A stretch of 34,195 nucleotides of DNA, from IMG/VR virus record IMGVR_UViG_3300014656_002176, positions 1 to 34,195 of that record; one strand, given 5' to 3'. The stretch's first letter is position 1; each line of letters begins with the position of its first letter. Source of the stretch: a virus. Lineage: Duplodnaviria > Caudoviricetes. Position numbers and translations under genes: made by a program. A model generated the notes under the pieces. That model was not told the DNA's origin. It made no database searches and saw nothing but the letters and a program-made list of their open reading frames with translations. This document shows positions 2,242 to 28,602 of this stretch, piece by piece.

Positions 2242-2310
2242 GGGCGTGAAAGGTCTAGCCAGTCAGTGGAATAACTGACTAGGAACTCGGCTTCAATGTC
2301 GACACGTCCA
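2242..2310 (+). ncRNA. tRNA-like RNA resembling a stand-alone tmRNA tRNA-like domain (Ala identity)
   Basis: Acceptor stem GGGCGTG(2242-48)/CACGTCC(2303-09) with G3.U70 and discriminator A2310; stemless D-loop AAAGGTCTAG; hairpin AGTCAGT/ACTGACT; T-arm TCGGC-TTCAAT-GTCGA; CCA not encoded. Confidence 0.6.
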
Positions 2311-8469: not shown

Positions 8470-9693
8470 ATGCCTTATCTAAGAAACCCGAAAGGAAGAA
8501 TTGTTTGCATAGACAAGCCAAATGAATACGAAAAATACCTAAATACAAAAGGATTTGAGAAGATTACGCCAGAAGAAGAAAGAGATTTCGTTATGGAAAG
8601 ATATAAGATAGCAGAGAAGGTAACAACGAGAAGGGAAGAGGTTATTCAAAACAATTTTGTTCGAGGCATTTACTTGTCCACGGTAGTTGAGGGTGGCAAA
8701 GATGGTTATGGAGTAGCCAGCGATAAGATTGTCAAAGAATTGGTCAACCTAGACGTAGACATATCCCGTGTTTTTAAGAAACAACTCGTTGGACTACTAT
8801 TTCATAATCCATATTCCGTACTAAAAATGGAAAACCCATTCAAGGTGATTTATACGATGTTTGAGAGTACTAAAATACCAGACGATTGGGTAAAATACTT
8901 ACAATCTGCCGACAAGGTGATTGTACCCAGTAGATGGTGTAGAGACGTATTCAAAAATTCTGGTGTTAATGCCGATGTTATTCCATTGGGCTACGACGAT
9001 GATGTATATACTTTTAAAGAGAGAGAGAACAAAAGCGAAAAGCATGAACCATTTGTTTTTTTGCACTATAACGCATTTAATGTTCGAAAGGGTTTTTTAG
9101 AGGTATTTAAGGCATTTACCCAAGAATTTGATAAATCAGAACCAGTCAAGTTGGTTTTAAAGACGACACTGAATAGTCCGCCAATTCCTATCATTAAAGA
9201 CAAGTACCCTAATATAGAAGTTATTTGCAAAAAATATAGCGAGAAAGAGTTAGTTGAACTGATTCATAAGTCTGATTGTTTCGTCTTTCCTTCAAGGGGT
9301 GAGGGATTTGGCATGACTCCGCTAGAGTGTATGGCAACTGGATTACCTGCGATTGTACCCAATGCACACGGGATAAGTGAATATTTTGATAAAGAATGTA
9401 TGTATGAAGTAAAAGTTAAAGAAGACTGCCCCGCCCTATATCATAAATATAAGGGTGAAGATGTTGGAAAGATGGTGATTTGTGATGTGAAAGATCTGAG
9501 GAAGAAAATGCGTTATATATACGAACATCAAGATGAAGCTTTAGAGATGGGCAAAAGAGCTAGTCGGTATGTGAGACAGTGGACTTTTAGAAAAACGGCT
9601 ATTAAGCTTAAACAGATGGTTGAGGAACTCTATTCTAAGCCTATTGAAAAAAAAGCTCTAACAAATGTATTACAATTAAGTGAGGTTAAATAG
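8470..9693 (+). CDS. Glycosyltransferase, GT-B fold (GT4-like), with an N-terminal extension
   Basis: YTMFES, VIVPSRW, RKG, FVFPSRGEGFGMTPLECMATGLPAI (ExxxxxxxE motif). Confidence 0.9.
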   Translation: MPYLRNPKGRIVCIDKPNEYEKYLNTKGFEKITPEEERDFVMERYKIAEKVTTRREEVIQNNFVRGIYLSTVVEGGKDGYGVASDKIVKELVNLDVDISRVFKKQLVGLLFHNPYSVLKMENPFKVIYTMFESTKIPDDWVKYLQSADKVIVPSRWCRDVFKNSGVNADVIPLGYDDDVYTFKERENKSEKHEPFVFLHYNAFNVRKGFLEVFKAFTQEFDKSEPVKLVLKTTLNSPPIPIIKDKYPNIEVICKKYSEKELVELIHKSDCFVFPSRGEGFGMTPLECMATGLPAIVPNAHGISEYFDKECMYEVKVKEDCPALYHKYKGEDVGKMVICDVKDLRKKMRYIYEHQDEALEMGKRASRYVRQWTFRKTAIKLKQMVEELYSKPIEKKALTNVLQLSEVK

Positions 9694-9704
9694 TTTATAC
9701 AAAT

Positions 9705-9881
9705 ATGAAAAAAGTAAAAAAAACAAACGATCAGCCGAAAATGAAATATAGATATGTGTGTCCCGCTTGCACCAATAATGCAATCTTCACCAGCAGTAAA
9801 ATGATTGGTAACAAAGTTACCTGCCAGTCATGTGGAAAAGAAATTATATTAGAAAACATGAACAACTATATAAAAATATAA
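9705..9881 (+). CDS. Small zinc-ribbon protein (58 aa), absent from the ORF track
   Basis: MKKVKKTNDQPKMKYRYVCPACTNNAIFTSSKMIGNKVTCQSCGKEIILENMNNYIKI*; CxxC-x17-CxxC; fills the gap between two GT genes. Confidence 0.7.
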   Translation: MKKVKKTNDQPKMKYRYVCPACTNNAIFTSSKMIGNKVTCQSCGKEIILENMNNYIKI

Positions 9882-9882
9882 A

Positions 9883-11007
9883 ATGAACATCAAATATTGT
9901 GGTGCACTAAGAGACTATTCGGGATACGGAGAAGCTGGTCGCCATGATGTCGGCGCTCTGTTGAGTGCTGGGGTTGAAGTGAAAACCGAAATGCCAAGCT
10001 ATGTATTGGAGGTGTCAGATTTTGGTGAATTGGGTGAGGAATGTCGTAAGCGACAAGACCTATCTATATCTTATGGTATAAAAATACTTCACACTACTCC
10101 CAACGTATATTCTAAATACTACGAAGAAGGCAAATACCACATCGGAAGAGTTATCTGGGAGACAGATAAACTCCCCAAAGATTTCGCTGATAATGTTCAG
10201 AAGTATTGTGATGAGATATGGACTGCCAGCGAATTTAATAAAAAAGCAATAGAGAAGGCTGGGGTAACAAAACCGATCTATGTTATACCAGAGGCCATTG
10301 ATTGTAGGATTAATTCAGATGAAATAGAACCTTATTTAGTTTCGAATAATCAAGACTTCAAATTCTATTCTATGTTTGAATGGACTGAGAGAAAGAACCC
10401 GTCGGCGCTACTAGAGGCTTTTTGGACTGAATTTGACCCAGCAGAGCCCGTCAGCTTAACGATTAAGACTTATGTAGATAGTTTTAGGCCAGAGAAACAA
10501 AGAGAGATCGACGATTACGTTAAAGCAATAAAGAGAAAACTTAATTTGAGTAAATACGCCCCCTTATATCTTTATAAGGAGTTAATGGACAGACACCAGA
10601 TATATCGCTTCCACAAGACATTTGATGTTTATGTTAGCACACATCGAGGTGAGGGGTGGGGAATACCGCAGACTGAGGCCATGCTAATGGGTAAACCAAT
10701 AATCTCAACGAATTGTGGTGGTTGCCATGAATATCTAACTCAAAACGTAGATTCACTGTTACTTGAGCCAAAGATGATCCCAGTAAGAGCAAATTCAAGA
10801 AATCAAATCTGGTACACACAAGACCAGAACTGGGCGGATGTTGATATTGACGAAGTTAAAAAGAAGATGAGGTATATGTTTGAGTCTAGGGAAATAGTGA
10901 GCCAGATGGGTAAGGAAGCAAAGAAAACTGTCAAGAGAGAATTTGACTTACCAGTAGTTGGTGACATAATGAAAAGTAGATTAGAAATTATTCAAAAACA
11001 ATTATGA
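9883..11007 (+). CDS. Glycosyltransferase, GT-B fold (GT4-like)
   Basis: SGYGEA, WETDKLP, ERKNP, YVSTHRGEGWGIPQTEAMLMGKPII. Confidence 0.9.
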   Translation: MNIKYCGALRDYSGYGEAGRHDVGALLSAGVEVKTEMPSYVLEVSDFGELGEECRKRQDLSISYGIKILHTTPNVYSKYYEEGKYHIGRVIWETDKLPKDFADNVQKYCDEIWTASEFNKKAIEKAGVTKPIYVIPEAIDCRINSDEIEPYLVSNNQDFKFYSMFEWTERKNPSALLEAFWTEFDPAEPVSLTIKTYVDSFRPEKQREIDDYVKAIKRKLNLSKYAPLYLYKELMDRHQIYRFHKTFDVYVSTHRGEGWGIPQTEAMLMGKPIISTNCGGCHEYLTQNVDSLLLEPKMIPVRANSRNQIWYTQDQNWADVDIDEVKKKMRYMFESREIVSQMGKEAKKTVKREFDLPVVGDIMKSRLEIIQKQL

Positions 11008-11153
11008 GAAAAATGGAAACGATTATGTACATTTGTTTAATTCTTGTATTGGCCTATTACGTTCACATAGCCAATAAGCCAAAAGTACTTGTCTGTCAAA
11101 ATCGAAGTGACGATGTTCAAGTATGTACCGTTATGAATTATTTAGGAAAGTGA
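11004..11153 (+). CDS. Small membrane-anchored protein (49 aa), absent from the ORF track
   Basis: MRKMETIMYICLILVLAYYVHIANKPKVLVCQNRSDDVQVCTVMNYLGK*; ATGA overlap upstream, GTGA overlap downstream. Confidence 0.6.
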   Translation: MRKMETIMYICLILVLAYYVHIANKPKVLVCQNRSDDVQVCTVMNYLGK

Positions 11154-12160
11154 AACTACACTATATTTCCTGCCATTCTATTCTTGAATATGACGAAGTT
11201 AAGTTGTTTACCGAAATGGGAATTGATGTCTTTTCGAACGGGGCTTATATTGACCCGAAGGGACATATAACTCTACCCCGTCCCGCAATAGAGGGAATGG
11301 TTTACCACGAAGATTTAGCCCAAATTGCACGAAGTACCCCACGGACAGAACTTCCCCCAGAACTAATAGAACCTTTTGATGTGATAATGATTATGCATAG
11401 CCCCGATGTTTTATTTCAGAATTGGCAAAGAATTAAACACAAAAGAGTTATCTTTAGGTCAATAGGACAGTCTACTGGTGGACTAGAGAAGAGATTAAAG
11501 CCATTGATTGACGAGGGTTTGGAAGTGGTTAGATATTCCCCAATGGAAAAGAATTTGCCTAATTATGCTGGTGAGACGGCTATGATTAGATTTTATAAAG
11601 ACCCAGACGAATTTAAAGATTGGAATGGTGATGACCCCTTAGTCATTAACTTCACCCAAAGCTTGAAAGGTAGGCGTGATTTCTGCCACCACGATGAAAT
11701 TATTAAGATGATGGAAGGTTTTAACTCAAAAGTATATGGTAATGGAAATGATGATCTTGGATCTTTGAATGGTGGAGAATTGCCTTATGAGTTAATGAAG
11801 GGAAAGATGAGGGACGCCAGAGCATACGCCTATGGTGGAACTTACCCCGCTTGCTACACGCTATCATTTATTGAAGCCATGATGACTGGTATTCCCATTT
11901 TAGCAATCGGAAAAAAGACTGCTAATATTGAGAAGTTTGAACAGCTAGACTTCTATGAGGTAGATCAGATTATCGAGGATGGTGTAAACGGTTTTTGTAG
12001 CGATGAAATTGACAAATTAAAGGACTACATTTCAATCTTATTAAGCAACAAGGATTATGCCCAAAAAATAGGTAAAAAGGGAAGAGAAACGGCAATTAAG
12101 TTGTTTAGTAAGGAAACTATTAAGAATCAATGGTTAAAATATTTAAACTTAGACAAATGA
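11150..12160 (+). CDS. Glycosyltransferase, GT-B fold (divergent GT4-like); start moved to GTG 11150
   Basis: YTLSFIEAMMTGIPIL, IEDGVNGF, GRETAIKLFS...W C-terminus; GTGA coupling with the upstream ORF. Confidence 0.8.
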   Translation: MKLHYISCHSILEYDEVKLFTEMGIDVFSNGAYIDPKGHITLPRPAIEGMVYHEDLAQIARSTPRTELPPELIEPFDVIMIMHSPDVLFQNWQRIKHKRVIFRSIGQSTGGLEKRLKPLIDEGLEVVRYSPMEKNLPNYAGETAMIRFYKDPDEFKDWNGDDPLVINFTQSLKGRRDFCHHDEIIKMMEGFNSKVYGNGNDDLGSLNGGELPYELMKGKMRDARAYAYGGTYPACYTLSFIEAMMTGIPILAIGKKTANIEKFEQLDFYEVDQIIEDGVNGFCSDEIDKLKDYISILLSNKDYAQKIGKKGRETAIKLFSKETIKNQWLKYLNLDK

Positions 12161-12885
12161 CAATCACAAAAGAATTGCAAGAAAAAGATACCAGCTTAGT
12201 TGTCCACAATGAGGGAGAGTGGAATAAAACCACTTCTGAATACACAGCGTTTAACGACGCTGGTATTGAATGTGAGGTCGGAGAGTTTTTATACGGATTT
12301 TTGAGAGTTTTAAAACCAGAATTTGTACTAGAAACAGGGACTCATGTTGCCGTTGGTGCTTCCTATCTAGGGATGGCTTTGAAGGATAATAATAAAGGGC
12401 ACTTGGATACAGTTGAGTTTTTGCCAGTTATTTATGTAGAAGCTAAACGTAGAATTGAAAAGATGGGTCTTCAAGATTTTGTTGAATGCCATTTTGGTGA
12501 TGTAAAAGATTTTAAAATCCCAGAAGATTGGAGAGGTTCTAATGCCACCATCCAAGAAACCATCGGTGGGGATCAGCCAACAATTAAGTATGATTTTATA
12601 TTATTAGACACTGAACCCCAGACAAGATTTGCAGAATTTATCAAGTTTTTCCCACACCTAAAGGAAGGTGGTTACATATTTATCCACGACTTACACCGAC
12701 ACATGCACCAAATTCCTAACGAGGAACACGGCTTTGCTTGGCCATTCGGAAAAATACCTGCTCCAATCAGTCAGCTGGTTCTCGACGGCTCGGTTTGCGT
12801 GTTCCACTTGCCAACCCCAAGAGGTCTAACTGGCTTTTACAAGGTCAGCGAATCCGATTATAATTTTAATAAATATGAGAAGTAG
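12157..12885 (+). CDS. Class I SAM-dependent methyltransferase (Methyltransf_24-like); start moved to 12157
   Basis: VLETGTHVAVGASY, YDFILLD, LKEGGYIFIHD; ATGA coupling. Confidence 0.85.
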   Translation: MTITKELQEKDTSLVVHNEGEWNKTTSEYTAFNDAGIECEVGEFLYGFLRVLKPEFVLETGTHVAVGASYLGMALKDNNKGHLDTVEFLPVIYVEAKRRIEKMGLQDFVECHFGDVKDFKIPEDWRGSNATIQETIGGDQPTIKYDFILLDTEPQTRFAEFIKFFPHLKEGGYIFIHDLHRHMHQIPNEEHGFAWPFGKIPAPISQLVLDGSVCVFHLPTPRGLTGFYKVSESDYNFNKYEK

Positions 12886-13894
12886 AGCAGTTTTATTACC
12901 AACCCCGTGCGACCCGTTCCTATTAAAATATTGGCTTGAGAACTATGCCAAATACTATAAGGATGAAGTCGACAAATTATATGTTTGTTTAAATTCGAGC
13001 ATAGAGAAAGAGGTCATAGAGTACGAACAAAAACTCCTCGAAAGATACGGGGCTAGTTTTGTATATATAGACCACCAAATAGAACATGGTGACGCCATCA
13101 AAATCTTATTGGAAATGTGCAAGGAAGAATATGTAATGCTGGTCGAAGATGACGCTTATGTCTTCAAGAAAGGCCATATTGATTCTTGTTTTAAACACGT
13201 TGAGGACGGAGAGGTGGATTGTGTTGGCTCGAAGAGGGGCAGTTGTGCTTTTGAAATACTAGAAGAAGCCAAAAGAAAGTGGGGAGTTGATTATGAGGGT
13301 TTGGGGGATCATGGATGTAATTTTTGGCCATGTTTCTTTTTCTGTAAGACACAGACATTGTTAGACACTGATAGGCACTTTAAGGCCAAGGCTTGGGAGA
13401 AGGGTGAAGTTGTAGAACCATTGAATTATGTGATGAAAGAAACTGGATATGGAGACACTTTTGTAAACACTAGCCTCATATTAAGGTCTAAAGGATTAAA
13501 GTTCTTATGCCTACAACAATATCATGGTAGCCCCGAAGACTTGGTTCACTGGGAAAAACGACAGTATCTATGGAATGGTTTATCGGCTTGGACTCATGTA
13601 GGAAGTTTGAGTAGTGGTGTTGGTGGAGTTTTGGTTGATGATAGGGGAATAAGTCTTTCAAATAGAAAGATTTGTGTTGAACCAAGAGAGTTTAAGTTGG
13701 CCGAGGCACACATAGATGAGTGGGCAAGAAGAATACAGTGGTGGCAAACATTTTACGATAATTCAGATCCGAACGAGATATGTGAATTTAGGGAAGAATA
13801 CCGAAAAGCTTTAGATAGAATCTATGCTCTTAGCGGAGTTCACAGAAAAACGGTGTTAAAAAGACAAAAAGCATATAAGGAGTTAGGACTATGA
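12875..13894 (+). CDS. Putative glycosyltransferase, GT-A fold
   Basis: HGDAI...EYVMLVEDDAYV (DxD-type); cassette context. Confidence 0.7.
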   Translation: MRSRAVLLPTPCDPFLLKYWLENYAKYYKDEVDKLYVCLNSSIEKEVIEYEQKLLERYGASFVYIDHQIEHGDAIKILLEMCKEEYVMLVEDDAYVFKKGHIDSCFKHVEDGEVDCVGSKRGSCAFEILEEAKRKWGVDYEGLGDHGCNFWPCFFFCKTQTLLDTDRHFKAKAWEKGEVVEPLNYVMKETGYGDTFVNTSLILRSKGLKFLCLQQYHGSPEDLVHWEKRQYLWNGLSAWTHVGSLSSGVGGVLVDDRGISLSNRKICVEPREFKLAEAHIDEWARRIQWWQTFYDNSDPNEICEFREEYRKALDRIYALSGVHRKTVLKRQKAYKELGL

Positions 13895-14586
13895 TCGTAC
13901 CAGATATTGTAATTAGTTGGCCAAGAAATTGCGATTATCCAATGTGGCGAAAATTTATAAGGGAAAACAGAAATAGGTTTAAAGATGTCATTATTGTCAT
14001 CACCGAGACAAATCAAGGGTATGACTACAGTGATTTTATAAAAGAGGAAATGGGAGGTTATTGCACGGTAGTTAAGTCCCCACCTGTTCTTTCAGGACAA
14101 GATTGGAGAAATATATCAACAAACTTTGGGCTAACTTTGTGTAGTTCTGAATGGGTGTGGTTTACAGAACAAGATTTTTACCCCAATGAAGAGTTTTGGG
14201 AATATATCAGCCAAATTACAATGGACTTAAATAACGTAAACGTAATTGGCGCATATCAAGGGGATAGGCTTCACCCTTGTTGTATTTTTGCTAAAAGAGC
14301 TGTCGTAGACAAAACAAGGAGAGACTTTAGCATTACCCCAGGCGTTGCAGATCATTTTTATAAGTTTCAGCAAGACATAAAGAACATTTCGGTGATTAGA
14401 ATTAGCGCTGGACTATACGAACACTTAAATGGGCTTAGCAGTAATTTTAGTCTAATTGCAAATGGCGGAGTTCCAAACTATGAAGTAGATAGGTTTGATA
14501 AATACATTGCCGACTCTCTAAACAGCAAGGAAACACTACATCCTAACTTTATAAAAGTATGCCAAGAATACTTAGATAGAAAATGA
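13891..14586 (+). CDS. Putative glycosyltransferase, GT-A fold
   Basis: WRNISTNFGL...SEWVWFTEQDFY (ExD variant); cassette context. Confidence 0.65.
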   Translation: MIVPDIVISWPRNCDYPMWRKFIRENRNRFKDVIIVITETNQGYDYSDFIKEEMGGYCTVVKSPPVLSGQDWRNISTNFGLTLCSSEWVWFTEQDFYPNEEFWEYISQITMDLNNVNVIGAYQGDRLHPCCIFAKRAVVDKTRRDFSITPGVADHFYKFQQDIKNISVIRISAGLYEHLNGLSSNFSLIANGGVPNYEVDRFDKYIADSLNSKETLHPNFIKVCQEYLDRK

Positions 14587-15620
14587 ACGTGCTATGTGAT
14601 TTCCATCATGCAGGACTTCTTAATTCATTAATTCTATTATTTGAGAGGAGGTTGGGGTGGAAAGTTTATCGACCCATCGGCAGACAGTGGTTTGATGAAG
14701 GATATTGGAAGGTTTACGATCACCCAGCCACGGTAGCACAGTTTTTGGATGTTAATGGGGCTACCCCAGACAACACCGACCCCGTGAATGATGTTATTAC
14801 TGGTGAAAGCGGAGTTTACATTTGCCACGACATATCCTCTTTAAAGACAAATAGGGCAATTACCTTAGACAAATTTAGGGAGATGAACTTCGGGATCATA
14901 ATTGCCTCAATTCCAAAACATGTTGAACCGTTTAAAAAGTTATGCAAAGAACACTGGTCAAGACCTAAACTTATTTTCCAAATTGGCAATCAGTGGGTCG
15001 GGGAGGCCGAAAAAGCTGACAATATCATGTGCTCTTCTCGCATAGCCATAGCGAACAAGAATAGTGTGGTATATCATCAAGAATTTGACACAAACGTCTT
15101 TTCTAGGGCTTCTAGTGAGGTGTTCGAACCTAACATCACTTCGCTAGTTAATTGCTTCTCTAATGACGGAATGTTTAAAGAGGATTGGGAGCTATTCCAA
15201 AAGGTTGAAAAACTAATGCCAGAGTGGAATTTTAAGTGCATGGGCGGTCAGTGTCGTGATGGACAGGCGCATGGTGAGGCGGAAGTCGCCAAAACAATTG
15301 CAAAGGCTGGCTTTATTTGGCATACGAAAAAGGGCGGTGATGGTTACGGTCACATAATTCACAATGCTAGTGCTTGTGGTAGGCCAATGATTGTTAAAAA
15401 GGAGTATTATTCTGGTAAGTTGGGAGAAGACTTAATGATAGACGGAAAAACGTGTGTTTGTATTGACGGTTTAAACCCCTTGGAGATAAAGAATAAGATT
15501 GAATATTACTCTCGGCAATGGAAAGAACTATGTAACAACTCATATTATAATTTTAAAAATAAGGTTGACTTTGATAAGGAAGAGAAGATCATTAGACATT
15601 TTTTGTCAAAGTTGATATAA
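14583..15620 (+). CDS. Putative glycosyltransferase, GT-B fold (divergent)
   Basis: EFDTNVF, WHTKKGGDGYGHIIHNASACGRPMIV, DGKTC; resembles the GT4 donor-binding region. Confidence 0.7.
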   Translation: MNVLCDFHHAGLLNSLILLFERRLGWKVYRPIGRQWFDEGYWKVYDHPATVAQFLDVNGATPDNTDPVNDVITGESGVYICHDISSLKTNRAITLDKFREMNFGIIIASIPKHVEPFKKLCKEHWSRPKLIFQIGNQWVGEAEKADNIMCSSRIAIANKNSVVYHQEFDTNVFSRASSEVFEPNITSLVNCFSNDGMFKEDWELFQKVEKLMPEWNFKCMGGQCRDGQAHGEAEVAKTIAKAGFIWHTKKGGDGYGHIIHNASACGRPMIVKKEYYSGKLGEDLMIDGKTCVCIDGLNPLEIKNKIEYYSRQWKELCNNSYYNFKNKVDFDKEEKIIRHFLSKLI

Positions 15621-15626
15621 CAGACT

Positions 15627-16490
15627 ATGGATAAAGTAAGCATTGTTATTCCATCGAGAAACGAGATCTTTTTAAAAAATACGATTGAGGACATTTTAAA
15701 AAATGCGACAGGTGAAATAGAGGTATTCCCAATTTTAGACGGTTACGAGCCACCAGCCGAGGAGATTGTCAAAGATCCAAGAGTAAATTATATCCGACTT
15801 CCAAAAGTCACATACACCCAGAAAAGACACGGAATAAATCATGCAATTTCAATTTGTACTGGTAAATATGTTATGTCTGTTGACGCACATTGCATGTTCG
15901 CTAAAGGGTTTGATGAACAGCTGGTTAAGGACAGTCAACCAAATTGGGTGCAAATACCAAGAAGACATAGGCTGGACGCAGAGAATTGGTGCTTACAAAC
16001 CCAGAGCGATAATCGACCACCAATAGATTACGAATATATTATGTACAAACCTCTTTTTACTGATCTTGGTATTCACGGTTTTAAGTGGGATGAGAGGACG
16101 CTAGAGAGGTGGGATATCCCCATCGACGACACTATCACGTTTCAGGGTTCGTGTTGGTTTATGGAAAAAGATTGGTTTAACAAGATGGGTTTTATGCAAG
16201 TTGAGGGATATACTGGCTGGGGTCAAGAAGCGGAGGAAATTTCTTTTACTACATGGTTGAACGGCGGAAGGGTGGTAACAAACAAGAACACTTGGTATGC
16301 CCATCTCCACAAAGGTCAAAAGTATGGAAGGATGTACTGGATGAGCCGTAACGAAAACAGAAAATCTTATGCTTATTCTTATAGCAAATGGATGGTCGAA
16401 AACAAGGACTTTTTTATTAGTTTAATTGAGCAATTCCCTTTAATGCCGTCGTGGCCATCAAATTGGAAAGAAAAATTATGGAAACTTTAG
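15627..16490 (+). CDS. GT-A glycosyltransferase with polypeptide GalNAc-transferase (GT27)-like motifs
   Basis: VSIVIPSRNE.FL..TI..IL, SVDAHC (DxH), WGQEAEEISFTTWLNGGRV, YAHL. Confidence 0.85.
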   Translation: MDKVSIVIPSRNEIFLKNTIEDILKNATGEIEVFPILDGYEPPAEEIVKDPRVNYIRLPKVTYTQKRHGINHAISICTGKYVMSVDAHCMFAKGFDEQLVKDSQPNWVQIPRRHRLDAENWCLQTQSDNRPPIDYEYIMYKPLFTDLGIHGFKWDERTLERWDIPIDDTITFQGSCWFMEKDWFNKMGFMQVEGYTGWGQEAEEISFTTWLNGGRVVTNKNTWYAHLHKGQKYGRMYWMSRNENRKSYAYSYSKWMVENKDFFISLIEQFPLMPSWPSNWKEKLWKL

Positions 16491-17092
16491 ATTATATCGT
16501 CAAAAAATTTAACATTGACCTAAATCAACCATCCCCGATAATGTTGGCAATAGGGAGATTTAAGGACATACCAAAACTTTTGTGTGAACTAGGCTTCAAC
16601 AAAGGGGCTGAAATTGGTGTTTATAGGGCTTCGTATTCGAGACATCTTTTAGACAGAAACCCAAACTTGCAACTAATAGGTGTAGACGCTTGGGAGGTGT
16701 ACACAGGATACAAGGATTACCACAGGGAAGATATAAAAGACGCTCATAGAGAATCCATCGAGGTGTATAAAAAATATGGTGATAGGGCTACTTTAATTCA
16801 AGGGTGGAGTAATTGGGTGGTCAAGACTATTCCCGATGAGTCGTTAGATTTTGTGTTTATAGACGGAAACCACGCCTATGAATACGTCGTTGAAGATATC
16901 GCCTTGTGGTCAAAAAAGGTAAAAAAGGGCGGAATTATATATGGACACGACTTTGATGATTACTCAAATAGTAGACGTTGGAAGGACATGAATGTTATTA
17001 ATGCCGTCGATGGGTGGATGAAATCTTATAAAATTAAACCTTGGTTTGTAACAACCAATAATTCCAACAAGTGTTGGCTATATGTAAAATGA
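16478..17092 (+). CDS. Class I SAM-dependent methyltransferase (Methyltransf_24-like); start moved to ATG 16478
   Basis: GAEIGVYRA, GVDAW, LDFVFIDGNHAYEYV..D...W..KVKKGGIIYGHDF. Confidence 0.9.
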   Translation: METLDYIVKKFNIDLNQPSPIMLAIGRFKDIPKLLCELGFNKGAEIGVYRASYSRHLLDRNPNLQLIGVDAWEVYTGYKDYHREDIKDAHRESIEVYKKYGDRATLIQGWSNWVVKTIPDESLDFVFIDGNHAYEYVVEDIALWSKKVKKGGIIYGHDFDDYSNSRRWKDMNVINAVDGWMKSYKIKPWFVTTNNSNKCWLYVK

Positions 17093-17820
17093 AACTATCA
17101 ATAATAATAGCAGTCTATAACAGTCACGGTGTCATAGAGAGGCAAATGAAGTTTTTCTCCAAACTCCAACTTCCCGACGATATAGAATTTATACTAGTAG
17201 ACGATGGCAGTTCTCCCCGACATGAGGGCTATAGCTTAAAAAACTTGAAGATTATCTATACAAATGATAAACGCCCTTGGACTCAGGGGTTGGCGAGAAA
17301 CAGGGGGGTAAAGGAATCGTCTGGTGAGTATATTTTAATGACTGACGCCGATCACATATTGTCTTACGAGGCAATAATGGACTCATATAATTTTACTGGT
17401 GATAAAATGATTTTCCCTAGATTTTTGGCAGTTTTGGATGAAGATGGGTGCTTGACTCAGGAAAAACAAGTTTTGAAAGATTACGGGATAGATGAATCAC
17501 GTTTTACTTCCAAGAGGGGTTTATATGCTTCATATCACGGGAATACTTTTTGTATGAAGAAATCTACATTTGAAAATCTCGGCGGATACCCAGAGAAGGC
17601 TTGTACTTACGGACATCATGCCACTTCAAAGAAAGGCGAGGACTCATATTTTAATACGAGGTGGAATCATTATGCCGTCAAGTACGGTCTTAAACCAATC
17701 GTAGGTTCTAAAATTTATATATTTCCAATAGGTAGATATAACGTGAATTATGATCTAAACCCAAAAGGTTTGTTTCATTCTTTAAGTTATGAGCCTGTTG
17801 CACAACCAAACAAACTATGA
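17089..17820 (+). CDS. Glycosyltransferase family 2; start moved to 17089
   Basis: MKLSIIIAVYN, ILVDDGS, ARNRG, MTDADH, LGGY.E, GED. Confidence 0.9.
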   Translation: MKLSIIIAVYNSHGVIERQMKFFSKLQLPDDIEFILVDDGSSPRHEGYSLKNLKIIYTNDKRPWTQGLARNRGVKESSGEYILMTDADHILSYEAIMDSYNFTGDKMIFPRFLAVLDEDGCLTQEKQVLKDYGIDESRFTSKRGLYASYHGNTFCMKKSTFENLGGYPEKACTYGHHATSKKGEDSYFNTRWNHYAVKYGLKPIVGSKIYIFPIGRYNVNYDLNPKGLFHSLSYEPVAQPNKL

Positions 17821-18581
17821 AAAAAATAGCGATAATCGGTTTCGGGTGGGTAGGCAAATCAATGGGGAAGTTGTTCCCAGAGGCCACAATTTACGATCCG
17901 ATGTTAAAAAATAATGTTACAAAGGAAGACGTAAATAATTGTGACGTGGCTTTTATAGGAGTTCCAACCCCTTGTATAGAAGAAGGTAGGCTGGACACTT
18001 CAATTGTTGAAGAATGTGTTGAGTGGTGTAAGTGTCCTCTTATTGTAATAAGATCAACAGTAAACCCAAACGACACCCTAAATTGGTCGGTAAAATATAA
18101 CAAAAAAATAGTCTTTCAGCCAGAGTATCTAGGTGAGACACCGCAACATCCATTATTAGATCCAAAGGCTAGGCCATTTTTAATTATCGGCGGACAACCA
18201 GAAGCAAGGAGGGATTTAATTGACCTATACACCGAGGTTTATAATGCAAACGTAACTATTCGCCAAGTATCTTCATTGGAGGCGGAGATAATCAAACTAA
18301 GCGAAAATAGAGCTATTGCCTTCAAGGTTGCCCAGTGTCAGGAATTATATGATGTTTGCGAAATTTCGGGAGTCGACTACTACCAAATTCGAGACGCAGT
18401 TTACGGAGATGATCCAAGATTTAATTTATGGTTTACTTTTATATACCCAGAAAAAAGAGGCATGAGCTCTAAATGTATTCCAAAGGATGTTTATGCTTGG
18501 TGTGCTTTTGCTGAATCCCTCGGTTATAATCCACAAATTACACGGGGAATCCTTAAAAAGAACAAGGAGTGGGTTGGTTAG
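17817..18581 (+). CDS. UDP-glucose/GDP-mannose dehydrogenase family protein, short form
   Basis: IIGFGWVG, FIGVPTP, IRSTV, PEYLGE, AEIIKLSEN, KCIPKD with the catalytic Cys; 254 aa, no C-terminal domain. Confidence 0.85.
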   Translation: MKKIAIIGFGWVGKSMGKLFPEATIYDPMLKNNVTKEDVNNCDVAFIGVPTPCIEEGRLDTSIVEECVEWCKCPLIVIRSTVNPNDTLNWSVKYNKKIVFQPEYLGETPQHPLLDPKARPFLIIGGQPEARRDLIDLYTEVYNANVTIRQVSSLEAEIIKLSENRAIAFKVAQCQELYDVCEISGVDYYQIRDAVYGDDPRFNLWFTFIYPEKRGMSSKCIPKDVYAWCAFAESLGYNPQITRGILKKNKEWVG

Positions 18582-18597
18582 GCTGTTATACTAAATT

Positions 18598-20274
18598 ATG
18601 TACGATTTATCTATTTTAATACCAGCCCGAAACGAGGAGTTTTTGGTCAGAACGATAGATGACATTTTGCAACACATAGAAGGTAATACAGAAATTATAG
18701 TCGGTTGTGATGGAAATTGGCCTGCCACTCCAATAAAAGACAATCCTAGGGTAACTGTTGTTCATGTTTCCGAGTCAATTGGCCAAAGGGCAATGACCAA
18801 TCAACTTTGCCGATTATCAAAAGCAAAATATGTGATGAAAGTAGACGCTCATTGTGCCTTCGATCAGGGATTTGACGTGAAGTTAATGGCTGATATGCAC
18901 GATGACTGGACTGTCGCCCCGATAATGAGGAATTTGCATGCATTTAATTGGAAGTGTAAGAATGGACATACCAGATATCAAAGCCCAAGCGGAGTCTGTA
19001 AAGTATGTGGTGAGCCGACGGAAAAGGACGTTGTTTGGATTGCTAAAACTAACCCTTCATCCACGTCGTATTGTTTTGACCCAGAACCTCACTTTCAATA
19101 TTTCAATGATTGTAAAAATAGACAATGGTACAAAGACCAAGGAGACCTAACTGAAAGCATGTCCCTTCAAGGCTCTTGTTTTATGTTGACTAGAGATAAA
19201 TATTGGGAGCTTAATATTTGTGATGAAAACTTTGGCAATTGGGGTTCTCAAGGAATCGAGGTGGCGTGTAAGACTTGGCTTTCTGGCGGAAGGGTGATAA
19301 TAAACCATAAGACTTGGTATGCGCATTTATTTAGAACTCAGGGAGGGGATTTTGGTTTTCCATACTTGCTAGGACAGGGTCAGATTTCAAATGCGAAAAA
19401 AACTGCACGGGAGATGTTTTTTGATGGGAGATTTAAAGGTGAACGACCAATTAGTTGGTTAGTAGAGAAATTCTGGCCAGTACCAAAATGGACAGAAGAT
19501 GATTTGAAAAAAATAGGTGGAAAAGTACCAGTAGTCGAAAAAACGTCAAGCACAGAGCCTATAGTGAAGCTATCAGGCACAAAAGGGGTCATATATTACA
19601 CAGATAATCAGTTAGATGAGAAGGTTATGAAAGCTTGTCAGAAACAATTATGGAAAAGTGCTTGTCGAGACCATAAATTACCAATAGTGTCCTGTTCTCT
19701 AAAACCGATGGATTTTGGTAAGAACAAAGTTTTTAAAGGCGAGAGAGGGTATTTGACCATGACTAAACAAATTTTAACTGCTTTAGAGGAGCTGGATACA
19801 GACATTGTGTTCTTTTGTGAGCATGATGTCTTGTATCCCCCAGAACATTTTGCCTTTACTCCACCAGATAGAAACACTTGGTATTACGAGGAAAACTATT
19901 GGTTTTTAAGACTTAACGATGGTTTTGCTATTAGTTATGACTGTTCACCTTTATCGGGATTGGTAGTTTACAGAGATATTGCTATTAAACATTTTAAAGA
20001 AAGAATCGCTTTAATGGAAAAAGACCAGTTTAAAGAGTTTTCTATGTTAAAGATAGGTTTCGAACCGATGACCCATGGAAGAATTAAGTGGGAAAATTCA
20101 TACCCCTTCAAGACTTTTTATTCTCCTAAGCCTAGTATAGACATTACTCATGGAAGTAATGTTAGTCGAAAAAGGTGGAGGATAGACCAGTTTAGACGTA
20201 AACCCAAAAGATGGCAGGAAGGCACGATTGATACTATCTCCGAATGGGATAATGTCAAAAGATTGTTGGGATAA
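18598..20274 (+). CDS. Two-domain glycosyltransferase: GT27-like N-terminal domain plus a second GT-A domain
   Basis: LSILIPARNE, KVDAHC, WGSQGIEVACKTWLSGGRV, YAHLFR; C-terminal IIYYTDN-like start and FFCEHDVLY. Confidence 0.85.
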   Translation: MYDLSILIPARNEEFLVRTIDDILQHIEGNTEIIVGCDGNWPATPIKDNPRVTVVHVSESIGQRAMTNQLCRLSKAKYVMKVDAHCAFDQGFDVKLMADMHDDWTVAPIMRNLHAFNWKCKNGHTRYQSPSGVCKVCGEPTEKDVVWIAKTNPSSTSYCFDPEPHFQYFNDCKNRQWYKDQGDLTESMSLQGSCFMLTRDKYWELNICDENFGNWGSQGIEVACKTWLSGGRVIINHKTWYAHLFRTQGGDFGFPYLLGQGQISNAKKTAREMFFDGRFKGERPISWLVEKFWPVPKWTEDDLKKIGGKVPVVEKTSSTEPIVKLSGTKGVIYYTDNQLDEKVMKACQKQLWKSACRDHKLPIVSCSLKPMDFGKNKVFKGERGYLTMTKQILTALEELDTDIVFFCEHDVLYPPEHFAFTPPDRNTWYYEENYWFLRLNDGFAISYDCSPLSGLVVYRDIAIKHFKERIALMEKDQFKEFSMLKIGFEPMTHGRIKWENSYPFKTFYSPKPSIDITHGSNVSRKRWRIDQFRRKPKRWQEGTIDTISEWDNVKRLLG

Positions 20275-20300: not shown

Positions 20301-23300
20301 ATGGCTTCAGCGGAAATCATAACCACAGGTCTTTTTAATAGCACATATCTCAAATCATATTATCGTTTTGAATCTGGGGCTTTAACTACAGATAGTAGTA
20401 GTCAAGGTCACACTTTGACGGCAATATCTGACCCAGCGGAGGGGGATGGTGTTTTTGGTGGGGCTGTTGATTTAGATGGTAATGACGGGTATTCAATTTC
20501 AGACCATGCAGATTTTAAGCCGACGGGCAACTTCTCGATTAATGCTTGGATAAAAAGCTCTACAACAGGAGCAATTCAGGCCATTTTTGCGTCATATACG
20601 GTTACACCAAATACCGCAGGAATTATGTTAGATGTAAATTCTTCTGGGTACGCAGTCTTGGTTTCAGGAAAAGATACTGGCACTCTTGAAAATACGGACT
20701 GGGCTCAGTGCGTGGGTACGGCAAGTGTTTGCGATGGTGGGTGGCACATGATTACTGGTACATGGGACGGAACGAATTTGAAAATTTACGTCGATGGTTC
20801 ACTTCAGACAACAAAGGCGTGGTCAAATGCCCCTTCGTATGACCCGACAAACGTCGTTCGGTTTGGTTGTCGAGACCCATTTAGCACTGGGGCAATTTCT
20901 TTTGTAACTGGGTCACTTGACGATGTGGCTGTTTTTAACGGGCTTGCCTTATCGTCTGACCAAGTAGCCAGTATTTATGATGGTACAATAAATTCAGTAG
21001 AATTAAACACTACTGGACTGTTGAATGATGATAATCTGGCTGGATATTGGAGATTCGAAGACAATTCATTGGACACAACCGAAAATAACAATGATTTAAC
21101 CCTTTCTGGTTCTCCGTCTTATGTAACTGGTTTTTTCGGAAAAGGACTAAATTTGGTTTTGTCTTCGGCACAATATGCTTACATATCAGATGGTTCACAG
21201 ACTGATTTAGATTTGTCTGGCGATTTTACAATCTCAGCATGGATAAAAAAAACCGCCACTGGTATCGGGTATATATGTGGTAAGTGGAACGGCACATCTA
21301 ACCAGAGAGCTTATTTGTTTTTTATAAACTCCGATAATAAATTGTACGTTAGTGTTACAGATAATGGTACTAACGACTGGTCTGGTGGACATGCAATCCA
21401 ATTAAAAAGTACGTCTACGGTGTCAACAGGCAGATGGACACATGTTGCAGTGACTTTTGACATAAGTTCAGATTCATGCACTTTTTACAAAAACGGTGTT
21501 GGTGAGGCAGGAACTTTGGTTCAGGGAGGTATAGGGACTACTGTCTATAATAGCACGGCAACTTTTTGTGTTGGTGCAAGCACAGAGGCAACTGTTGGGC
21601 TTGACGCAGTTTTGGATGAATTGGCTGTTTTTAGTCGAATCTTAACTTCTGACGAAATCGGAAGTCTTTATGACGGAACTATAAATTCTCCAAGTCCATC
21701 AGCCTCACCCTCAGCTTCTCCATCTTTATCACCAAGTTCTAGCGAATCTCCGTCTACTTCTCCAAGCCAAAGCCCGTCAGAGTCGCCTTCACCAAGCCCT
21801 AGTTCTTCTCAAAGTCCCTCATTGTCCCCTAGTTCTAGCTTGTCCCCATCTCTTTCCCCTTCTCAAAGTCCTAGTTTATCCCCATCCTCATCAAACAGTC
21901 CTTCCACCTCTCCCTCAAATTCACCGTCTATTAGTCCTTCTTCATCCAACTCTCCTAGTCGTAGTCCGTCATCCTCTAATTCTCCCTCACGAAGCCCAAG
22001 TTCTAGTATCTCTCCCAGTAATAGCCCAAGTGTTAGCCCTTCTTTGAGTCCCTCTAGTTCACAGTCTCCTTCAAATTCTCCCTCTACTAGCCCTAGTTTA
22101 AGTCCTAGTTCTTCAAACTCTCCCTCGCAATCTCCATCAGAATCCCCTTCCTTATCTCCGTCTGCCAGTGAATCTCCCAGTACTTCACCGAGCGAAAGCC
22201 CGAGTACAAGCCCTTCAAGTTCTATCTCCCCTTCTTTGTCGCCATCTGAATCCCCCTCTCTTTCTCCGAGTTCTAGTGAAAGTCCTTCTGAAAGTCCCAG
22301 CGAGTCACCTTCTTTAAGCCCTAGTAGTTCGGTGAGCCCCTCCGAAAGTCCTTCGGTGTCTCCTTCGCTTTCTCCAAGCTCTAGTGAATCACCATCAGAA
22401 TCTCCAAGCCTCTCACCCAGCAGTTCAATCTCACCGTCGGTTAGCCCTTCGGAAAGTCCTTCAACCTCACCATCGACATCAGTTAGTCCTAGTGAATCTC
22501 CAAGCCAAAGCCCGTCGTTAAGTCCTTCTAGTAGCCCTAGCAACTCTCCTTCCCAATCACCTTCACTATCTCCTTCAAGTTCGGAAAGTCCCAGTGAATC
22601 ATCAAGTGAAAGTCCGAGCGAGTCCCCGAGCTCATCAACTTCCCCAAGCTTGTCACCTTCTTCTTCTCAGTCACCTAGTTTAAGTCCTAGCGCCTCTTTG
22701 AGCCCCAGTTCTTCGCAATCACCTTCTACCAGCCCAAGTTCATCTGTTTCCCCGTCAAATTCTCCATCTAATTCTCCGTCTATCTCGCCATCTGTCTCGC
22801 CGTCGTCTTCGGCTTCACCTAGTTTGTCACCAAGTAGTTCTGTTTCTCCGTCTGAATCCCCGTCCGAAAGTCCAAGCTCGTCCCCATCTTCTAGCGTGTC
22901 TCCGTCAGAGTCGCCGTCTGTTAGTCCGTCAGTAAGTCCAAGTTCTTCGCAGTCTCCTAGTGAGAGCCCGTCAAACTCACCATCAACCTCCCCCTCATCG
23001 TCTCCAAGTGAGAGCCCCTCTAGTTCACCTTCTTCATCAGTCTCACCCTCTTTAAGCCCGTCTAGTAGTGTTTCTCCGTCGGAAATTTCTAGTGAATCGT
23101 CAAGCGTTTCCCCAAGTGAGTCACCCAGCCTATCTCCATCATCTTCAATTTCTCCATCCGAGTCACCAAGTGAGTCACCGTCAGTGTCTCCAAGTTCGTC
23201 AGAAAGTCCCTCCAAAAGTCCCTCTTCATCTGAATCCCCATCCGTTTCCCCGTCATCATCATTATCACCCAGTTCTTCGAGCAGTCCGTCTTTAAGTCCG

Positions 23301-23858
23301 TCATCTTCCGTGTCCCCATCAGCTAGTCCATCATCTTCTAATAGCGCCAGCCTTTCTCCGTCCTCAAGTACATCATCGTCATCTTCTCCGTCCGCCAGTC
23401 CTTCTATCTCTCCCTCATTATCACCGTCGTCTAGTGTTTCCCAGTCAGCTTCCCCAAGCGAGTCGCCAAGCAAATCACCTTCTTCATCAGCTAGCCCTTC
23501 GGGCAGTCCGTCTGTTTCACCAAGTGTTTCACCGTCCTCATCCACAAGTCCGAGCCAAAGTCCTTCTATTAGTCCGAGCCAATCCCCCTCAAGTTCTGTT
23601 TCTCCGTCACAATCACCTAGTGAATCACCAAGTTCATCGGCCTCTCCATCTCAATCACCTTCACTAAGTCCATCCTCATCATTCTCACCGAGTCCTTCAC
23701 CTAAGCAACAATGGTATGAAAAAAACAACACTCAGTTTGTCAGCGATCTCGGGGCTAAAGATAAATGGGAAAACAAAAACGATACGACCTTCCAACAACC
23801 GAACAATTTCAAATGGTATAATAAATTAACTAAAAATTGGATATATAAAAATGGCTAG
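20301..23858 (+). CDS. Putative virion fibre/decoration protein: 2x LamG (concanavalin A-like) domains + 672-aa Ser/Pro stalk + short Trp-rich C-terminus
   Basis: YYRFE/YWRFE, FSINAWIK/FTISAWIK, WHMITGTWDG/WTHVAVTFD, GSLDDVAVF/LDELAVFSR; no signal peptide; between the capsid and head-tail genes. Confidence 0.85.
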   Translation: MASAEIITTGLFNSTYLKSYYRFESGALTTDSSSQGHTLTAISDPAEGDGVFGGAVDLDGNDGYSISDHADFKPTGNFSINAWIKSSTTGAIQAIFASYTVTPNTAGIMLDVNSSGYAVLVSGKDTGTLENTDWAQCVGTASVCDGGWHMITGTWDGTNLKIYVDGSLQTTKAWSNAPSYDPTNVVRFGCRDPFSTGAISFVTGSLDDVAVFNGLALSSDQVASIYDGTINSVELNTTGLLNDDNLAGYWRFEDNSLDTTENNNDLTLSGSPSYVTGFFGKGLNLVLSSAQYAYISDGSQTDLDLSGDFTISAWIKKTATGIGYICGKWNGTSNQRAYLFFINSDNKLYVSVTDNGTNDWSGGHAIQLKSTSTVSTGRWTHVAVTFDISSDSCTFYKNGVGEAGTLVQGGIGTTVYNSTATFCVGASTEATVGLDAVLDELAVFSRILTSDEIGSLYDGTINSPSPSASPSASPSLSPSSSESPSTSPSQSPSESPSPSPSSSQSPSLSPSSSLSPSLSPSQSPSLSPSSSNSPSTSPSNSPSISPSSSNSPSRSPSSSNSPSRSPSSSISPSNSPSVSPSLSPSSSQSPSNSPSTSPSLSPSSSNSPSQSPSESPSLSPSASESPSTSPSESPSTSPSSSISPSLSPSESPSLSPSSSESPSESPSESPSLSPSSSVSPSESPSVSPSLSPSSSESPSESPSLSPSSSISPSVSPSESPSTSPSTSVSPSESPSQSPSLSPSSSPSNSPSQSPSLSPSSSESPSESSSESPSESPSSSTSPSLSPSSSQSPSLSPSASLSPSSSQSPSTSPSSSVSPSNSPSNSPSISPSVSPSSSASPSLSPSSSVSPSESPSESPSSSPSSSVSPSESPSVSPSVSPSSSQSPSESPSNSPSTSPSSSPSESPSSSPSSSVSPSLSPSSSVSPSEISSESSSVSPSESPSLSPSSSISPSESPSESPSVSPSSSESPSKSPSSSESPSVSPSSSLSPSSSSSPSLSPSSSVSPSASPSSSNSASLSPSSSTSSSSSPSASPSISPSLSPSSSVSQSASPSESPSKSPSSSASPSGSPSVSPSVSPSSSTSPSQSPSISPSQSPSSSVSPSQSPSESPSSSASPSQSPSLSPSSSFSPSPSPKQQWYEKNNTQFVSDLGAKDKWENKNDTTFQQPNNFKWYNKLTKNWIYKNG
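21687..23702 (+). repeat. Coding low-complexity (Ser-X)n repeat, 672 aa
   Basis: SPSxSPSxSPSSSx units; Ser at essentially every second residue; codons highly varied. Confidence 0.97.
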
Positions 23859-26967: not shown

Positions 26968-28602
26968 ATGTTTGAGATAGGATCAGCAGTTGCCAAAATT
27001 AAAGCAGACACAAGCGATTTCCAAAAAGGTATCGGGGAAATAAGCGGGAGTACAAGCAAATTGGGGTCTTTGATGACAAAACTTGGTGGTGTTATAGCTG
27101 GCGCATTTGCGATTAGTAAAATAGTTGATTTTGGAAAGCAAGCTAGTTTGGAAGCCTCTAATTTTGAAAGGGCGATGATTTCTTTAGACATTATCGCTGG
27201 TAAATTTGGTGTTAGTGCGGACGTGGCCAAAGAGAAGGCGACAGAACTTGGGAAAAGTTTAAGAATTGGCGTTGGTGCTTCGGCTGAAAGTTTACAGAAC
27301 TTGTTGAAATCAGGATTAAACTTAGATCAATCGGTTGAGTTAATGAAGAGGTTTACAAACGAAGCCATAACAGGCAAGTCGGCAAACATCTCACTTGCTC
27401 AGGCGGTACAAAACTTGTCTTTTGCCTATGCTACTGGAAATAGTGCATTGGGAAATATGTCTGGTATGTCAGAAAACTGGTCGGATATTATAGATAAAGG
27501 TCGGATAGCTTTGGAAAAGGAAGGAGTTGCGACAAAGGATATTACCGATGATATGGCCAAGCTTAGGGGTACAATGGACTTGACAAACTTGACACTAGGT
27601 TCTTCGGAGAGATTTACTGGTACTTTAATTGACAAACAAGCAGAACTGGGCATTAAGATACTTGATTTAAAGGTAAAAATAGGGGACATTCTTAACCCAG
27701 TCTTGGCATTTTTTGTTGGCTTAATGGCGACAGTTGTTGATGGGGTTTCTAATTTTGTCTCTGTATTAACTCAATCTTCGAAAGAAGGTGGTGCTTTATC
27801 AAACGTATTAAGCGAAATGGGTATAGTGTGGAATAATCTAATTGTATTTTTAGAGCCTTTAATTAGTTTATTTGTGGCAAATGTAGTCCCGTTATTACAA
27901 AGCTTGTGGTCTGAATTTATGTATTTTGTAAACGCAGTCGTACCACCAGTCGTTTCCATTGCTGGTTTTTTATATAGATCATTGGTAGAAATATTTACAA
28001 ATCTGTATAATTTTTGGGTACAAAATTGGGAAAATATATCTAAAATTTTGAAAGGCGCATGGGAGTTTATTGTTGGTTTCTTGCAGTGGAATTTTGGTGT
28101 AATAGTTGGAATATTTGTGGTTTTCTTAAACTTACTTACTGGAAACTGGCAGGGTGCTTGGGACGCAATCAAACACTATTCTCAGGTTGCTTGGGATGGT
28201 TTAAAAAATATGTTCAATGGGATAATTTCATTCCTATCTGGTTGGGGTGGCTGGTTGCTTGATGTTCTTACAGAGCCTTTCAGAAAGGCGTGGGAGACTA
28301 TCAAAGGAATTGTGGAAAATATAAAAAACGCTTTAGACTTTACCAAAAGACACTCTCCCTCGGTGGTAGATATTGTCCATAAAGGGGTCGGACTGGTCAA
28401 CAGGGCGTTTGATGATCTAAAAGTGGGTGTTGAGCCGATTGACACACAACACCTATCCCTAGCGGGCGCTGGTACGTCAAATTTGGCATTGAATATAAGT
28501 CTTGATGGGGCAATGATAACCGATGAATACGGCGCAAGGTCAATGGCTGAAAAAGTCGGAGATCTTATCATTACCCAGTTAAAAGGTAATGTGAGGTTCT
28601 AA
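26968..28602 (+). CDS. Tape measure protein (544 aa)
   Basis: N-terminal IGSAVAKIKADTSDFQKG, amphipathic repeats with periodic W/F (GNWQGAWDAIK), HSPS near the C-terminus. Confidence 0.9.
   Translation: MFEIGSAVAKIKADTSDFQKGIGEISGSTSKLGSLMTKLGGVIAGAFAISKIVDFGKQASLEASNFERAMISLDIIAGKFGVSADVAKEKATELGKSLRIGVGASAESLQNLLKSGLNLDQSVELMKRFTNEAITGKSANISLAQAVQNLSFAYATGNSALGNMSGMSENWSDIIDKGRIALEKEGVATKDITDDMAKLRGTMDLTNLTLGSSERFTGTLIDKQAELGIKILDLKVKIGDILNPVLAFFVGLMATVVDGVSNFVSVLTQSSKEGGALSNVLSEMGIVWNNLIVFLEPLISLFVANVVPLLQSLWSEFMYFVNAVVPPVVSIAGFLYRSLVEIFTNLYNFWVQNWENISKILKGAWEFIVGFLQWNFGVIVGIFVVFLNLLTGNWQGAWDAIKHYSQVAWDGLKNMFNGIISFLSGWGGWLLDVLTEPFRKAWETIKGIVENIKNALDFTKRHSPSVVDIVHKGVGLVNRAFDDLKVGVEPIDTQHLSLAGAGTSNLALNISLDGAMITDEYGARSMAEKVGDLIITQLKGNVRF

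Follow-up and report, generated by a model that had tools for sequence, protein, structure and literature searches.

A tag-less tmRNA derivative with a six-nucleotide T-loop beside the terminase genes of a tailed phage

The locus and its small RNA

The window (the whole stretch of viral DNA analyzed, 34,195 nucleotides) makes up nearly all of contig C15 (34,222 bases) of a genome bin of 1.19 Mb and 89 contigs. It carries a tailed-phage structural module with HNH, Zn-ribbon, terminase small subunit (terS), terL, SPP1-type portal, minor capsid and scaffold genes; the small RNA, the promoter at 2007-2036, the Zn-ribbon ORF and terS lie on the plus strand. Between the Zn-ribbon ORF (2062-2241, 59 aa, treble-clef; PF13451, E 1.5e-10) and terS (2332-2895; phrog_4102, E 2e-15) lies a 69-nt tag-less mini-tmRNA, counted up to its discriminator base (2242-2310), which corresponds to tmRNA's tRNA-like domain only. 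Its first base, G2242, abuts the TAG stop codon of the Zn-ribbon ORF (2239-2241), confirming the start proposed in an earlier reading made without database searches (the sequence-only reading), and terS begins 21 nt after its end. A predicted sigma-70-like promoter at 2007-2036, matching 11 of 12 consensus positions, would drive the Zn-ribbon gene, the RNA and terS. A second promoter-like match (2299-2326, 10/12) overlaps the 3' end of the RNA ahead of the terS start and is probably incidental. One DNA read run, possibly from the source sample, shows no sequence variants.

The acceptor stem is formed by 2242-2248 and 2303-2309, which pair at 7/7 positions, the third pair being the G2244.U2307 wobble (G3.U70), and is followed by the discriminator A2310 and an encoded C74 at 2311, the end of the 3' segment 2303-2311. 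Since CTT follows the discriminator, C74 is the only base of CCA that is encoded. The D-loop (2249-2258) is a stemless, unpaired stretch of 10 nt that begins AAAGG; when its GG (2252-2253) is placed in the register of the Rfam consensus and of the numbering given in the excerpted text of PMC8363625, the sequence puts the U17 equivalent at 2256 and the G19 equivalent at 2258, and replaces the C18 equivalent with A at 2257. A short hairpin (2259-2283) takes the place that helix 2, pseudoknots and tag frame have in tmRNA. Its helix (2261-2267 with 2274-2280) has seven perfect base pairs under a GGAATA cap and is lengthened by two C-G pairs (2259-2260 with 2282-2283) beyond the bulged A2281; the segment folds at z -5.6 relative to its own shuffles. 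The linker that follows is AAC (2284-2286), or GAAC if G2283 is counted, and retains the A334 and C335 equivalents with A at the G333 equivalent; an alternative alignment to the model R1 described below reads it as GGA, an inserted A and C. The T-arm (2287-2302) has five pairs, including one G.U in the stem (2287-2291 with 2298-2302), and a 6-nt loop, TTCAAT, closed by C-G. The acceptor with G3.U70 and discriminator A, the AAAGG D-loop and the TTCAAT T-arm of the sequence-only reading are thus all present in sequence and fold.

The 69-nt RNA has a minimum free energy of -28 kcal/mol (z -3.95; 0/200 shuffles equally good), and its pair probabilities are 0.83-1.0 when the flanks are included in folding. 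A strict descriptor, composed after the element had been seen, matches once in the window and in none of 200 simulated windows. The 25-nt hairpin is all that lies between the two tRNA-like halves, which agrees with the earlier statement that the RNA has neither tag frame nor pseudoknots; the D-stem and the anticodon arm with a 7-nt loop that characterize tRNA (RF00005) are likewise absent from 2242-2310. The perfect GGAATA-capped helix was also described correctly, but its placement as a substitute for the anticodon arm was not: it corresponds to helix 2 of tmRNA, which mimics a long variable arm, SmpB occupying the place of the anticodon arm (PMC3968760, in excerpt).

The contig lacks a host flank, its G+C content is 0.39 versus about 0.44 in most of the bin, and its tetranucleotide match to the bin (0.62) is the lowest of 33 contigs over 15 kb, so the host has been assigned by binning only. 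The bin encodes SmpB, AlaRS, RnpA and a PF01743 nucleotidyltransferase; an RNase P RNA was not found in it. It also holds two different full tmRNA-smpB pairs (L001, G000:C66:1083-1446; L002, G000:C67:1924-2290) with SmpBs 38% identical, and may be mixed. Unlike the window's RNA, both of these tmRNAs have AG instead of GG in the D-loop and a T-loop that begins TGCAA, and this pair of changes recurs in other genomes of the phylum. Elsewhere in the window, a GDP-mannose dehydratase gene (PF16363, 408-1424) and a run of about 12 ORFs that follows the major capsid gene and resembles glycosyltransferases and methyltransferases (8470-20274, read by eye) suggest that virion glycosylation is likely; two proteins in which Ser-Pro repeats form long tracts (20301-23858 and 28602-30908) are probable glycosylation targets.

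A subtype with an AAAGG D-loop and a six-nucleotide T-loop

Relatives of the element were found with patterns that fix only the loops and a few end bases. The first pattern gave six matches, comprising four whole tag-less RNAs and two ends of permuted tmRNA; a loose viral pattern gave three real matches among the 120 listed, two of them known already and one added; and in a metagenome pattern scan 15/57 matches, including the window's own contig, pair at 7/7 acceptor and 5/5 T-stem positions. In all 15, pairing is perfect at the 10 stem pairs for which both sides had not been fixed by the pattern. None of the eight matches of a GTDB pattern scan was real, and the last viral pattern scan yielded no further member. 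Other searches gave less: an exact 17-mer scan returned three matches, all by chance; BLAST with the element as query, against 101 related genomes and cultured phages, gave short chance matches only; searches of terL and Zn-ribbon loci gave no relatives; and in 151 genomes from the phylum of the bin R2, a model of the subtype, found the window's own contig and two weak matches.

After removal of duplicates the subtype comprises 14 distinct sequences (the window's element and 13 relatives) of 66-86 nt with an AAAGG D-loop and a 6-nt T-loop. L205 was left out (6/7 and 4/5 pairs, without G3), though R2 scores it at 27 bits, and L068 and L074 were rejected as members (4/5 and 4/5 pairing, acceptor not G-rich). 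G3.U70 is present in 14/14 members, G3 not being fixed by the patterns, and compensatory two-sided changes occur at 6 of the 12 stem pairs, in 35 cells across the 14 sequences, which shows selection on both stems and on alanine identity. These pair counts are partly circular, since perfect stems were what members were picked for and related sequences do not count as independent; the evidence therefore lies in the bimodal rate of real matches, not in the count alone. The middle hairpin is free in both length and sequence among the 14, and beats its shuffles (p<0.05) in 12 of them. CCA is encoded in 6/14 members and C74 in 13/14, so that the earlier caveat that CCA is not encoded holds for 2242-2310 but carries less weight, the RNA of phage DS6A also lacking it. 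The caveat about the 6-nt T-loop likewise stands for this RNA and is softened by the full-length tagged tmRNAs of L396, L057, L422 and L430, which have such a loop.

Four of the 14 members adjoin tRNA genes and four lie in or beside a terminase operon. No gene is common to the neighborhoods, and no relative of the Zn-ribbon gene was found beside other mini-tmRNAs, which gives no sign of a partnership. Small RNA genes have a slot in the terminase region; in the closest terS relatives (L014-L017) a tRNA-Thr lies about 1.9 kb downstream of where terS starts.

Several other RNAs were noted. L194:2454-2563 and L402:248-381 are tag-less forms of greater length (about 110 and 135 nt), with an AAAGG D-loop and a branched middle, that of L194 having a 6-nt T-loop. 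The viral contigs L057, L422 and L430 carry tagged tmRNAs, full or permuted, which share the 6-nt T-loop, and it is possible that such tmRNAs are the ancestors of the subtype. On a cellular contig, L371 (L421:16139-16223; G039:C1:329638-329722) is an 85-nt tag-less RNA that resembles tmRNA but has an altered elbow; it scores 39 bits with R1 and lies 15 kb from the full tmRNA of that genome, from which it differs at the 3' end. L370 (G091:C8:21709-21777), a 69-nt RNA with an alanine acceptor and an encoded CCA, lies between genes for an aspartyl/lysyl-type tRNA synthetase and GMP synthase and is missed by ARAGORN; with its cloverleaf fold and odd anticodon loop, it is an odd tRNA rather than a mini-tmRNA.

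Relation to tmRNA and to the wider tag-less family

The standard tools proposed in the sequence-only reading as a check do not recognize the element: ARAGORN calls neither a tRNA nor a tmRNA at 2242-2310, the Rfam tRNA model makes no call there, and the Rfam tmRNA model (RF00023) has no match even at E 10. Other Rfam families (Y RNA, ribozymes, riboswitches) reach at best E 1.7 in 1800-2800, and no Rfam family matches at its gathering score anywhere in the window. In contrast, 17 of 20 loci tested from the canonical pattern described below clear the Rfam tmRNA cut-off. The link to tmRNA was instead drawn with R1, a model whose 23 rows are canonical phage tag-less tmRNAs, the element and its subtype being left out. 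Its match in the window is exactly 2242-2310, at 29.7 bits (E 2e-5, a rough value) against 9.8 for the next best, a score that the model may favor slightly since all of its rows have three bases before the GG, like the element. The other 13 members score 27-69 bits and the DS6A RNA 60 bits; tRNAs score at most 14.5 bits in one set, and the margin is modest because the best tRNA elsewhere, a tRNA-Arg, reaches 24.7 bits, only 5 below the element. At the sequence level, a stronger link than the R1 score is the graded series that leads from L061 and L189, which combine the full TCGAC...GGAC elbow with the AAAGG D-loop and 6-nt T-loop, through L226, L060 and L402 to the window's element. The exact R1 match, the compensatory changes among 13 relatives and these elbow-keeping intermediates together uphold the main earlier claim, of the tRNA-like domain of a tmRNA only, with alanine identity, and the element is very likely a tag-less tmRNA derivative, whatever its function.

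The elbow is the part that has drifted. U17, G19 and A334 are SmpB contacts, and the change G19C abolishes trans-translation (PMC8363625, in the portion of that article available). Counted from the D-loop GG and the Rfam consensus, the element retains the U17, G19, C21, A334 and C335 equivalents, has changed those of A15, C18, A20 and G333, and has a T-loop one base short. Across the subtype the U17 equivalent is kept in 9/14 members and that of G333 in 5/14; A334 and C335 were fixed by the search patterns. The G19 equivalent is kept in 9/14, a nominal enrichment (p 0.004) among kin that are not independent, and a G in that register is missing from the other five. With the C18, A20 and G333 equivalents changed, any SmpB binding by 2242-2310 would probably be weaker than that of canonical forms. 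Full tmRNAs of the bin's phylum (35 ARAGORN calls out of 43 loci) have TCGA, which the element lacks, in 32/35, C at position 333 in 5/35 and a 6-nt T-loop in one; such loops and 333 changes in full tmRNAs mean that the caveats leave room for a tmRNA-like function.

Tag-less tmRNAs have been described before. Mycobacteriophage DS6A is listed as having a 'TLD only' tmRNA (PMC4131195, in excerpt), and the tmRNA database, as reported in the excerpted text of PMC11915505, holds just 9 one-piece message-less ('standard, no CDS') sequences among 97,179. We located the DS6A RNA (tmID 11587, Phage__Mycobacterium.9) at JN698994 28478-28557. Like the window's RNA, it is a phage gene with a 7-bp acceptor, G3.U70, A73, a stemless D-loop with GG and no encoded CCA, in which a short hairpin replaces the message and pseudoknots. 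It differs in its TCGAC, its 7-nt T-loop and its length (80 nt versus 69 nt), the window's RNA having a 6-nt, C-G-closed T-loop and a changed elbow, and it scores only 18 bits with R2. Bacterial tmRNA (RF00023) shares with the element the layout of the tRNA-like domain, the alanine identity elements and the U17, G19 and A334 equivalents, but has the tag frame and pseudoknots that the element lacks. Among organelles, message-less tmRNAs of mitochondria (RF02544), conserved along with SmpB, and of Mallomonadaceae plastids (genes of about 65 bp) are noted in the available portion of PMC11915505. They resemble the element in size and in having no tag frame; however, they replace the sole tmRNA of the organelle (in mitochondria with an organelle-targeted SmpB), whereas the viral RNA would face an intact host tmRNA.

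A canonical pattern, defined by the textbook tmRNA elbow and a gap of no more than 42 bases separating the halves, matches at least 120 loci in viral contigs; 108 of the 120 listed are complete tag-less RNAs of this known kind, and about 700 matching stretches are estimated from 11/64 parts. The matches listed contain 90 distinct canonical tag-less RNAs of 62-92 nt, with G3.U70 in 90/90 (U70 being fixed by the pattern) and CCA encoded in 21/90. Their layout is that of the window's RNA, with the differences that the T-loop is 7 nt in 89/90 and that TCGAC, which the pattern fixes, is present in all. Many of them (L249-L368) share with DS6A an inner motif, an A-rich stretch followed by a CCGC...GCGG hairpin, which is absent from the window's element. 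We found no published description of the 6-nt-loop subtype or of the abundance of the family in the open-licence literature. What is new here is the drifted form with an AAAGG D-loop, a 6-nt T-loop and a relaxed elbow.

Possible roles in ribosome rescue

We favor, at about even confidence, the reading that the charged mini-tmRNA competes with host tmRNA and lets stalled proteins escape tagging and destruction. The RNA would be transcribed from the predicted promoter on a late transcript, cut by RNase P directly after the Zn-ribbon stop codon, trimmed at the 3' end and then given CCA by host enzymes, and charged with alanine by host AlaRS. It would next compete against the tmRNA of the host for SmpB, EF-Tu and stalled ribosomes, whereby the tagging and destruction of stalled proteins would be avoided. 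No smpB adjoins the mini-tmRNAs at the 130 loci checked, which include 71 of the 108 canonical loci (those on contigs over 2 kb), so that the SmpB partner would be the host's. A DS6A-like RNA, chargeable or not, strongly inhibits the endogenous tmRNA of E. coli, and titration of SmpB may be the cause (Mao et al. 2009, cited through the excerpted texts of PMC4131195 and PMC11915505). As this artificial inhibitor worked in either state, pure titration leaves the invariant G3.U70 unexplained; the invariance of that pair suggests that the charged form acts, entering stalled ribosomes without a tag, rather than by passive soaking-up alone. The drifted elbow, the missing Rfam match, the modest R1 margin over a tRNA-Arg, the partly circular pair counts, a host known by binning only and a bin with two tmRNA-smpB pairs in which no RNase P RNA was found all count against the competitor reading.

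The variable elbow can also be taken to mean that SmpB is not involved, and that an anticodon-less alanine acceptor serves as a decoy that absorbs or escapes defenses aimed at tRNA or tmRNA ends. It would fit this that the SmpB elbow is variable alongside a conserved acceptor, G3.U70, D-loop GG and T-arm, that four members sit beside tRNA genes, and that defense systems with SmpB-like domains have been predicted, in the part of PMC11090510 available, to bind tmRNA. Set against these points are the enrichment of the G19 equivalent (nominal, as given above), the presence of members with the full textbook elbow (L061, L189) within the same subtype, and the lack of a recurrent defense or anti-defense gene among 30 neighbors scanned. 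We consider such a decoy rather unlikely, and are equally doubtful of a mini-tmRNA branch uncoupled from SmpB that has acquired some new task, for instance protecting phage translation against defenses directed at tRNA or tmRNA.

Somewhat less probable again is a helping role, in which a tag-free rescue RNA together with host SmpB would free stalled ribosomes late in infection and thereby support translation. The invariance of G3.U70 and A73 implies a role for the charged form, four members lie in or adjoin a terminase operon, and the message-less tmRNAs of mitochondria (with SmpB) and plastids offer a parallel; an RNA with no reading frame, however, supplies no stop codon for release of the ribosome, and in the single experiment cited tmRNA was inhibited. 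A relic of a captured tmRNA or of an attP integration site, with no function as an RNA, would account for the drifted elbow and the missing CCA, and tmRNA genes are frequent phage integration sites (PMC11915505, in excerpt). It is nevertheless improbable, and appears largely refuted by covariation along with chance origin, given that every stem is intact and covarying, that the D- and T-loops differ from those of both bin tmRNAs, that the RNA lies in a packaging module on a contig with no host flank, and that the strict descriptor matched none of the simulated windows. Least likely by a little is the processing signal for terS put forward in the sequence-only reading, by which a tRNA-like fold would let RNase P and 3' nucleases split the Zn-ribbon from the terS transcript: the element does abut the upstream stop 21 nt ahead of terS on one predicted transcript, but the four terS genes most similar to it (71-77% identical) have neither the element nor space for it, R2 finds one at 0/35 terS-related loci, the relatives lie in settings unrelated to one another, some of them having a -10-like box to themselves, and G3.U70 is unnecessary for cutting.

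As the element shows, part of the mini-tmRNA family escapes standard annotation. The 69-nt variant amounts to a natural mutant series for the elbow and T-loop bases needed by SmpB, AlaRS and EF-Tu. Message-less genes appear to be common, the pattern scan suggesting several hundred in viral contigs, and if they blunt host tagging, then phages would commonly manipulate ribosome rescue by means of RNA.
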